Sequence record: MN850574.1
Source of the DNA: Escherichia phage kaaroe
Length of the DNA: 64,000 bases
Strand: one strand, 5' to 3'
The notes under the pieces are model-generated. The model was not told the DNA's origin and made no database searches. It was given only the letters and a program-made list of their open reading frames with translations. Below are positions 23,530-24,487 of the stretch, one piece after another (position 1 is the stretch's first letter; each line of letters opens with the position of its first letter). A program made the translations under genes and the position numbers.

Positions 23530-24120
23530 ATGTTAAAAGTTCTAAAAGCGATAGTATTGAGTCTGTCACTAGCCGTTGGTGCTACACACGCATCGACTAG
23601 CGCACCGATCAAAAAAGCGCCGATAGACAACTTTACACCACACCAACTAGATAATTTACATTTCGCCTATCAATACGGCGAGCAATTCGAGAAAAGCGGT
23701 AAGTTGAAAAAGTACCATCCGAATATTCGCTATAACGGAAAGGGTTTAGGTCACATCCTGGCGGGTATCGCATGGCAAGAATCAAGCGCGGGTGCAAACT
23801 TAGCACCAAAGAAAAATCATCATGCTTATGGATTATTTCAAAATTACCTTAAAACGGTGAAAGCGAAAAATGAAAAGCGCGGTGTTAAAATGAGTGATCG
23901 CCAGACTATCAACTTTATCATGAATCGCGAGGTTTCTGCATTCTACGCGATGGATGAGTTAGCATACTGGCTGGATATTCGAAACGGTAATATCAGACTC
24001 GCGCTAGCTTCTTACAATGCTGGATGGAACTATAAAGCCGGATTAGGTTATGCTGATGACGTACTAAAAAAGGCTAACCATCTAAAGAGTAAAGGCATTC
24101 TTAAGACTAAACGCTATTGA
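23530..24120 (+). CDS. secreted lytic transglycosylase (SLT family 1 domain) with signal peptide
   Basis: N-terminal signal peptide; catalytic region AGIAWQESSAG, GLFQ and AYNAG motifs. Confidence 0.7.
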   Translation: MLKVLKAIVLSLSLAVGATHASTSAPIKKAPIDNFTPHQLDNLHFAYQYGEQFEKSGKLKKYHPNIRYNGKGLGHILAGIAWQESSAGANLAPKKNHHAYGLFQNYLKTVKAKNEKRGVKMSDRQTINFIMNREVSAFYAMDELAYWLDIRNGNIRLALASYNAGWNYKAGLGYADDVLKKANHLKSKGILKTKRY

Positions 24121-24127
24121 GGAATAT

Positions 24128-24487
24128 ATGAAAAAGTTGACAATAATTGCTATGATTGCTATGATGTTCTCTGCTGGTGCGCTTGCTAGTAATGAGCGCC
24201 CTTATCCAAAGTTCGAATACAAAGGATTTGAGATCAACAAAAAGATCATTAAAACTTTCTGTGATGATGATAACATGTGTAGTGATTTTATCGCGCTCGA
24301 ACTTGATGAAGCATACAAACAAGGTCGAGACGAAAAACGAAAAAATCGAGCGTGGGATCTGAGTATTGCCAGCTTTGCTAAAACAAAACGTAACCTGTGT
24401 GATACTGCCCCTGATAAGCAATTATGCTTTGCTTATCGCGACACACTGTTAAGCCGTTTTATGGCTGGGTTGTCTTCCCGTGACTAA
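24128..24487 (+). CDS. secreted/periplasmic hypothetical protein (119 aa)
   Basis: Signal peptide MKKLTIIAMIAMMFSAGALA; four Cys. Confidence 0.55.
   Translation: MKKLTIIAMIAMMFSAGALASNERPYPKFEYKGFEINKKIIKTFCDDDNMCSDFIALELDEAYKQGRDEKRKNRAWDLSIASFAKTKRNLCDTAPDKQLCFAYRDTLLSRFMAGLSSRD

Follow-up and report, generated by a model that had tools for sequence, protein, structure and literature searches.

Two adjacent genes of Escherichia phage kaaroe (MN850574.1) raise the question whether a T4-type phage sends a cell-wall enzyme and a small companion protein into the periplasm of its host, and how such an export agrees with the annotation of the second product as a 'valyl-tRNA synthetase modifier'. 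Both genes lie on the plus strand of the window, i.e. the whole stretch of 64,000 nucleotides analysed here. A preliminary description made from the sequence alone had presented them as a secreted lytic transglycosylase and a second signal-peptide protein in an early accessory operon. Both ORFs are confirmed at the positions given there, and the interpretation finds partial support.

Gene identity and neighbourhood

The window is Krischvirus-type DNA (RB49/Phi1/JSE-like T4-type coliphage) with 99.5% identity to Shigella phage Sf20, and in the 3.8 kb around the ORF pair the identity to genomes of Krischvirus (Shigella phage Sf20, RB49, Phi1, JSE) is 98-99.5%. The first ORF is vs.1 (23530..24120, plus strand, 196 aa precursor), a predicted exported single-domain GH23/SLT family-1 lytic transglycosylase, the second is vs (24128..24487, plus strand, 119 aa precursor), a predicted exported four-helix protein. 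In the Phi1 record the products are annotated as 'conserved hypothetical protein' (vs.1) and 'valyl-tRNA synthetase modifier' (vs), and the pair is preceded by regB and followed by tk.4, tk and rI. When the neighbouring ORFs in the window are scanned with Pfam and PHROG, they yield RegB (1.9e-48), a Macro domain (tk.4) and the antiholin RI, and the gene order of T4 is identical (regB, vs.1, vs, tk.4). The Krischvirus identity, the Phi1 annotation and the neighbour scans therefore identify the ORF pair as the RB49-type version of T4 vs.1-vs. The idea of a new accessory operon has to be dropped, as both ORFs are long-named genes, and their copies in the window add nothing to what is known of the gene family. 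rI is located 2.2 kb downstream in the window.

The GH23 domain of Vs.1 and other cell-wall enzymes

Mature Vs.1 would comprise ~175 aa (19.9 kDa, pI 9.9). The protein passes the gathering threshold of Pfam SLT (PF01464; 26.1 bits, cut-off 21.3, E 6.8e-6, residues 76-167) and matches phrog_600 (4e-60), besides weak matches to phrog_342 and phrog_2013 (phage muralytic GH23 proteins compared with Vs.1). Conservation was assessed in an alignment of the window protein and 78 relatives derived from 79 IMG/VR loci (n=79, ~25-99% identity). Motif I (WQESS) contains E84 in 79/79 sequences, followed by S or T at position 85, likewise in 79/79; the codon of this predicted catalytic Glu84 occupies 23779..23781 (plus strand), and the residue aligns with the AWNES Glu of EtgA chain 8urn. 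Motif II (YGLFQN) is somewhat more variable, with G101 in 77 of the 79, F or Y at position 103 in 66 and Q104 in 65. Motif III (SYNAG) comprises S161 (78/79), Y162 (79/79), N163 (78/79) and G165 (79/79) and is followed by a conserved tyrosine (Y174, 79/79); W147 is invariant in this alignment, too. The SLT family-1 motifs that the preliminary description had reported for this ORF are thus present, in a domain that scores above the Pfam cut-off.

The AlphaFold2 model of Vs.1 (26 homologues, mean pLDDT 85) displays a lysozyme-like alpha-helical GH23 fold. Its best 16 Foldseek matches in the PDB are all of the GH23 fold (14 lytic transglycosylase entries and two GH23 chitinase chains). PDB sequence searches with Vs.1 as single sequence and as profile returned no match below E 0.01; the best profile match, sub-threshold at E 0.064, is EtgA, with AWNES/AYNAG aligned to AWQES/SYNAG. 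NCBIfam contains no model for Vs.1 or Vs. From motifs and predicted fold we conclude that Vs.1 consists of the GH23 family-1 catalytic domain alone, with its active site intact.

The enzyme prediction for vs.1 was first noted around 2003-2006. Nolan et al. 2006 list a match to the SLT domain for vs.1 of T4 and five relatives and cite earlier PSI-BLAST matches for T4 vs.1 (PMC1524935); several recent GenBank records name the product 'lytic transglycosylase domain-containing protein'. The enzyme call is therefore correct but, with the SLT similarity published in 2006, not new: both the gene family of vs.1 and its domain prediction were known before. Experimental work on Vs.1 was not found in the literature searched.

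Two further wall enzymes are predicted in the window. ORF 19888-20277 is a Peptidase_M15_4 protein (E 4.4e-12) with a match to phrog_465 'endolysin' (E 7.5e-69), and gp5 at 8042-9841 (minus strand) carries a Phage_lysozyme (GH24) domain. The sequences hence agree with the earlier count of three distinct cell-wall enzymes (GH23 Vs.1, M15 peptidase, gp5 GH24 domain), and an exported, early-made wall cutter would represent a third peptidoglycan activity of the phage besides tail lysozyme and endolysin.

Export signals

A simple heuristic, rather than a trained predictor, served to recognise signal peptides: a positive n-region, the 10-residue hydrophobic maximum and small residues at -3/-1. The N-terminus of Vs.1 consists of MLKVLK, the hydrophobic core AIVLSLSLAVGA and THA|STSA, which predicts a Sec signal peptide of aa 1-21 (23530..23592, plus strand) with an alternative cleavage after A18; the same segment has pLDDT values <55 in the AlphaFold2 model. 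Vs starts with MKK, followed by the core LTIIAMIAMMFSAGA and LA|SNER, which predicts a Sec signal peptide of aa 1-20 (24128..24187, plus strand) with cleavage at ALA|SNER. According to the heuristic, both ORFs bear the features of Sec export and signal peptidase I cleavage and possess no further membrane segment. Vs.1 is not a candidate lipoprotein, as no lipobox precedes a Cys, nor a candidate SAR endolysin, as its hydrophobic core is short and followed by an AxA site.

Homologues retain the property of a signal peptide at their N-termini, not the sequence: 25 of 26 Vs.1 homologues pass the heuristic, the exception being an N-terminally truncated call, and so do all 60 of the Vs homologues. 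This is the pattern expected of functional signal peptides. Window-wide, seven of 114 non-overlapping ORFs pass; five of these are just 60-79 aa long, four of them with further hydrophobic segments, and Vs.1 and Vs, neither with a later hydrophobic segment, are the only ones >100 aa. The cleavable signal peptide proposed earlier for the first ORF is accordingly supported by the heuristic. For the second ORF the typical signal peptide was recognised rightly, but the existing annotation as 'valyl-tRNA synthetase modifier', which this signal peptide contradicts, had been missed.

Linkage and distribution of vs.1 and vs

In the window, vs.1 and vs are separated by 7 nt, and the Shine-Dalgarno sequence of vs (GAGG, 24119..24122, plus strand, read from the sequence) overlaps the vs.1 stop codon (TGA, 24118-24120), which suggests translational coupling. 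As a relative-locus search with the Vs alignment yielded only three loci, synteny was evaluated from the 79 Vs.1 loci. Of these IMG/VR loci, 54 carry Vs on the same strand as Vs.1 and downstream of it; the gap measures -4 to +7 nt in 45 of those with both genes. This spacing recurs in Tevenvirinae, Krischvirus, Slopekvirus-like Klebsiella phages and Acinetobacter phages; Vs.1-Vs adjacency occurs also in T4, Acj61, DP45 and Klebsiella phage Mexia. No Vs lies beside Vs.1 in the remaining 25 of the 79, among them Ackermannviridae, Felixounavirus, some Aeromonas phages and jumbo phages, therefore Vs.1 has no strict need for Vs. In a Felixounavirus the Vs.1 homologue adjoins rIIA-rIIB, and an Rz-like spanin gene is located ~1.2 kb away. 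A tblastn search detects vs.1 in 2031 records of phages from Straboviridae, Ackermannviridae and Felixounavirus; few uncharacterised early genes of large virulent myoviruses are conserved as widely.

Structure and annotation of Vs

Mature Vs would comprise ~99 aa (11.6 kDa). The protein matches phrog_1256 over its full length (E 1.8e-33) and belongs to the T4 Vs family; all Vs homologues carry the precomputed domain PF26829. Identity to T4 Vs is 30%, with four aligned cysteines, which are invariant in the 60-sequence Vs alignment (C45, C51, C91, C100) and spaced as C-x5-C and C-x8-C (C-x10-C in T4). These four residues of the mature protein would fit two periplasmic disulfides, or they may form a metal site. 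The AlphaFold2 model (pLDDT 73) consists of four helices (31-45, 49-68, 76-86, 97-117). Foldseek retrieved no fold match for it in the PDB, just non-specific helical matches (best E 2.4), and no PDB entry was matched by the Vs sequence. Members of this tiny family occur in phages only: an exhaustive profile search among 1.84 billion proteins recovered 30 representatives. The credible relatives in this search are single-domain proteins of 77-134 aa, with no credible fusion to SLT or other domains. Two long profile matches (513 aa, E 3.7e-5; 380 aa, E 7.6e-4) look spurious, composed of 6-7 short scattered stretches.

The classical literature assigns to the genetic locus vs a cytoplasmic function, the stabilisation of valyl-tRNA synthetase. 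The signal peptide and four invariant cysteines, typical of periplasmic proteins, are hard to reconcile with the binding of a cytoplasmic enzyme and argue against a cytoplasmic location. Mature T4 Vs is predicted to have 11.0 kDa; the tau factor purified by Muller & Marchin (1977) reportedly had roughly 10 kDa. The similar size would suggest that tau is the processed form, and a cytoplasmic site of action would be even harder to understand. The sequence record of 1986 lists the T4 ORFs unnamed, as ORF 60.9 (vs) and ORF 61.4 (vs.1). A basis for the later assignment of ORF 60.9 to the genetic locus vs was not found in the literature searched (T4 genome review and Muller & Marchin 1975 excepted), nor was a paper that links the vs product to a signal peptide; the SignalP table of Nolan 2006 covers novel ORFs only, without vs or vs.1 (PMC1524935).

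The sole point of real interest at this locus is that Vs has the features of an exported protein and yet is annotated as cytoplasmic, a conflict worth an experiment. Should Vs be periplasmic, an annotation that has stood in textbooks for decades and has spread to hundreds of genomes would be incorrect or incomplete, and the minimal-medium phenotype of vs would need a new explanation. Vs cannot act exclusively in the periplasm if ORF 60.9 truly is the classical vs gene.

Expression and fitness data

The 86-nt gap between regB and vs.1 contains a sigma-70-like promoter candidate of the T4 early type (23467..23495, plus strand; TTGACT, 17 nt, TATTAT) with an A-rich stretch ahead and 10/12 matches in a consensus scan. 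For the T4 orthologue (ORF 61.4) a promoter is annotated in X04567. The vs.1 Shine-Dalgarno sequence (GGAG, 23520..23523, plus strand, 6 nt 5' of the ATG, read from the sequence) corresponds also to the RegB cleavage motif as given in an annotation note of NC_000866, and RegB may cleave the vs.1 transcript at this site. RNA-seq and proteomics place T4 vs.1 and vs in the 'early RNA / middle protein' class, with both proteins detected (PMC9697503). Together with the promoter candidate this assignment makes the early expression assumed in the preliminary description plausible.

A transposon study of 2025 classifies T4 vs.1 and vs as 'non-essential' (bioRxiv 10.1101/2025.11.20.689424). Mean insertion reads in LB liquid are 22.6 for vs.1 and 26.6 for vs, compared with 179-652 for regB, tk.4 and vs.3 (Ext. 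Data Table 6 therein), i.e. 7- to 29-fold below neighbouring genes. In M9-glucose, vs drops further (log2FC -2.19, adjusted p 0), and vs.1 shows a log2FC of -0.87 (p 0.0055, adjusted p 0.155). The study authors also confirmed that a T4 vs deletion plates poorly on M9Glc. The lower insertion counts of vs.1 could reflect polar effects on vs; taken together, the T4 transposon data suggest a measurable fitness value of both genes. Bas37 of the HIDEN-SEQ study was considered as a Krischvirus and rejected, as its annotation table displays T4-type gene order and sizes; it serves here only as a second T4-like data point.

Proposed function and alternative readings

Activity, localisation or interaction data for Vs.1 or Vs of any phage were not found in the literature searched; export, enzymatic chemistry, the partnership of both proteins and their physiological role are what we infer from the features above. 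We favour, with moderate confidence, an early Sec-exported GH23 lytic transglycosylase and a co-exported small partner, which remodel the wall in the periplasm without lysis as an accessory function that adds fitness. Transcription of vs.1-vs would start before replication from the sigma-70 (early) promoter just 3' of regB. Vs.1 would be exported by Sec, lose its signal peptide and, being a small lytic transglycosylase with a single family-1 (GH23) domain, act in the periplasm. Glu84 would serve as single acid/base catalyst, cutting the MurNAc-GlcNAc bond and leaving, to judge from the family, a 1,6-anhydro-MurNAc end. Vs, translated in coupling with vs.1, would likewise be exported, its four-helix fold probably held by two disulfides, and is most likely a periplasmic partner or regulator of Vs.1, acting with it or on it. 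The pair would bring about a limited, non-lytic remodelling of the host wall in the latent period, a function that would improve fitness and be dispensable for plaque formation. A role in DNA entry, one of the functions suggested in the preliminary description, is implausible for the infecting phage, because Vs.1 would be made only after infection. For the suggested roles in superinfection exclusion or lysis timing there is a weak hint in some phages, where rI, rIIA/B or spanin genes lie nearby.

A more far-reaching reading, possible but less likely than not, is that the Vs ORF really encodes a Sec-exported, disulfide-bonded periplasmic protein working with or regulating Vs.1, that another gene, or an association outside the periplasm, accounts for the classical vs/tau function, and that the minimal-medium defect of T4 vs mutants is an envelope phenotype. 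It is also possible, if doubtful, that Vs is the classical tau factor, at least partly cytoplasmic, which binds the host valyl-tRNA synthetase and is unrelated to Vs.1, the adjacency of the genes being due to shared ancestry of the T4-like gene order. The universal annotation of the ORF as 'valyl-tRNA synthetase modifier' points in this direction, as do the closeness of the predicted mass of mature T4 Vs to the reported size of tau, the phage families with Vs.1 and without Vs, and the T4 vs deletion, which impairs plaques specifically in minimal medium and so fits translation or amino-acid supply (bioRxiv 10.1101/2025.11.20.689424). However, a cytoplasmic protein would hardly keep a cleavable Sec signal peptide (heuristic) and four invariant cysteines in 60/60 homologues; the close spacing to vs.1 persists from Tevenvirinae and Krischvirus to Slopekvirus-like Klebsiella and Acinetobacter phages, and ORF 60.9 bore no name in the 1986 record, with no basis for its later assignment in the literature searched. 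A sub-case of the partnership is an immunity-like pair, in which Vs inhibits Vs.1 so that early expression spares the cell. T4 offers a precedent with an early periplasmic lysozyme inhibitor, Spackle, directed at gp5 lysozyme (PMC7677548), translational coupling would ensure co-production, and the stronger depletion of vs than of vs.1 in M9 would follow if a phage lacking only the inhibitor fared worse than one lacking the enzyme. Nevertheless we regard such an inhibition as unlikely: many phages possess Vs.1 without Vs, depletion of both genes is similar in LB, and the Vs model has no match to a solved structure (best E 2.4), with neither Spackle nor any other lysozyme inhibitor among the 50 PDB matches listed.

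For Vs.1 itself, two further readings can be weighed against the non-lytic remodelling enzyme. Its GH23 muralytic fold and export signal recall secreted and SAR endolysins, and the vicinity of the spanin gene and rIIA-rIIB in a Felixounavirus and of rI in the window would suit a second, secreted endolysin acting directly in end-of-cycle lysis. This is very improbable, given the early RNA and the non-essential status of the T4 orthologue, the dedicated M15 endolysin of the phage (phrog_465) and an N-terminus with an AxA-type site behind a short hydrophobic core instead of the weakly hydrophobic membrane helix of SAR type; neither late expression nor a requirement for lysis is apparent for Vs.1, judged indirectly from the T4 orthologue data. 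There is hardly any chance that Vs.1 is a catalytically dead peptidoglycan binder or that the SLT match is spurious: the Pfam score lies just modestly above the cut-off and no PDB sequence match passes E 0.01, but the catalytic Glu and the family motifs are kept across ~25-99% identity.

Comparison with known systems

T4 Vs.1 (ORF 61.4, NP_049725) and its Straboviridae orthologues resemble the window protein most closely, with ~48% identity over the full length, the same position between regB and vs and the same architecture of signal peptide and SLT domain. The RB49-type Vs.1 of the window is 15 aa longer than T4 Vs.1 (196 vs 181), and the alignments place the extra residues after the signal peptide, ahead of the first conserved helix. 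Vs.1 has its GH23 fold and its catalytic motifs in common with the bacterial enzymes Slt70, MltC and MltE of E. coli and Slt, MltF and MltD of P. aeruginosa. Housekeeping family-1 lytic transglycosylases carry lipoprotein anchors or large accessory domains, in contrast to Vs.1, which is a bare catalytic domain with no lipobox seen. EtgA of the EPEC T3SS is alike in the combination of Sec signal and a single SLT domain of ~150-180 aa; VirB1, P19 and IpgF are further specialised small lytic transglycosylases of secretion systems. Unlike the genes of EtgA-type enzymes, vs.1 has no envelope-spanning machine at its side: its neighbours are regB, vs, the tk.4 macro domain, tk and rI, and no linkage to a secretion, conjugation or flagellar apparatus is found at vs.1 of the window.

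Among phage proteins, phiKZ gp144, the N-terminal domain of T7 gp16, phi6 P5 and Kayvirus Tgl are muralytic GH23 proteins like Vs.1. The first three are virion-associated, in contrast to Vs.1 with its predicted cleavable signal peptide and early synthesis (T4 orthologue RNA). Tgl, likewise encoded by a phage and similar to lytic transglycosylases, leaves the cell through the export system of the host (PMC7150955), but belongs to a phage of a Gram-positive host. For Vs, T4 Spackle (gp61.3) provides a functional analogy, being a small early periplasmic protein, made with a signal peptide, whose target is a phage muralytic enzyme (PMC7677548), namely the gp5 lysozyme of superinfecting phages. T4 Vs (ORF 60.9, NP_049724) shares with the window protein the C-terminal GL motif, the signal peptide and the place right after vs.1, and combines a reported cytoplasmic function with sequence features that predict export.

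Possible regulatory signals and neighbouring genes of vs.1 and vs

The Shine-Dalgarno sequence of vs.1, the gene of the predicted lytic transglycosylase, is GGAG (23520-23523, + strand) and identical to the cleavage motif of RegB, whose own gene is located directly upstream. Because of this identity, RegB may shut off vs.1 translation. The highest-scoring sigma-70-like match of the region (24137-24165, + strand) consists of TTGACA and TATGAT, separated by 17 nt and with TG upstream, agrees in 11 of 12 positions and lies within the initial 40 nt of the vs ORF. This site may be a chance match or may serve tk.4 as an internal promoter. 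The tk.4 homologue (24503-24958, + strand) encodes a macro domain recognised by Pfam (Macro, 6e-7) and by NCBIfam (DarG-like, 1.8e-13), and its T4 orthologue has recently been named AdfM, anti-DarT2 factor (bioRxiv 10.1101/2025.11.20.689424).

Upstream of vs.1, three small ORFs follow in succession on the + strand (22184-22378, 22360-22620 and 22621-23016). All three have the motif C-(S/A)-H-L-x-x-x-x-W in their C-terminal part and resemble tandem paralogues; the last of them hits phrog_6261, a family of unknown function. Also on this strand are a homologue of vs.6 containing a GrcA-like glycyl-radical domain (20961-21377) and nrdC.11, an RlaP-family nucleotidyltransferase (21464-22162).

Vs.1 homologues outside T4-like phages

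The Vs.1 homologues of the non-T4-like phages Cba120 (locus L006) and UAB_Phi87 (locus L007) retain the signal peptide, while their neighbours differ. In Cba120 (L006, 2495-3750) the next ORF overlaps the homologue, encodes 212 aa and lacks a signal peptide; in the Felixounavirus UAB_Phi87 (L007, 2501-3049) the gene order is rIIA-rIIB, Vs.1 homologue, pseT.

Tail lysozyme and endolysin regions

The baseplate hub and tail lysozyme gp5 (8042-9841, - strand) comprises OB, Phage_lysozyme and C-terminal beta-helix domains, with gp6, gp53 and dNMP kinase nearby. An ORF of 157 aa (10463-10936, + strand) amid baseplate and tail genes encodes an N-terminal domain of the TnsA-like endonuclease type (E = 4e-21).

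The M15 peptidase endolysin (19888-20277, + strand; phrog_465, 7.5e-69) is directly preceded by a cluster of small hydrophobic ORFs of 63, 88 and 63 aa (19257-19859, + strand), one of which matches phrog_15232. This cluster could represent the holin or lysis accessory region in this type of phage, which lacks a T4 e-type lysozyme at this position.
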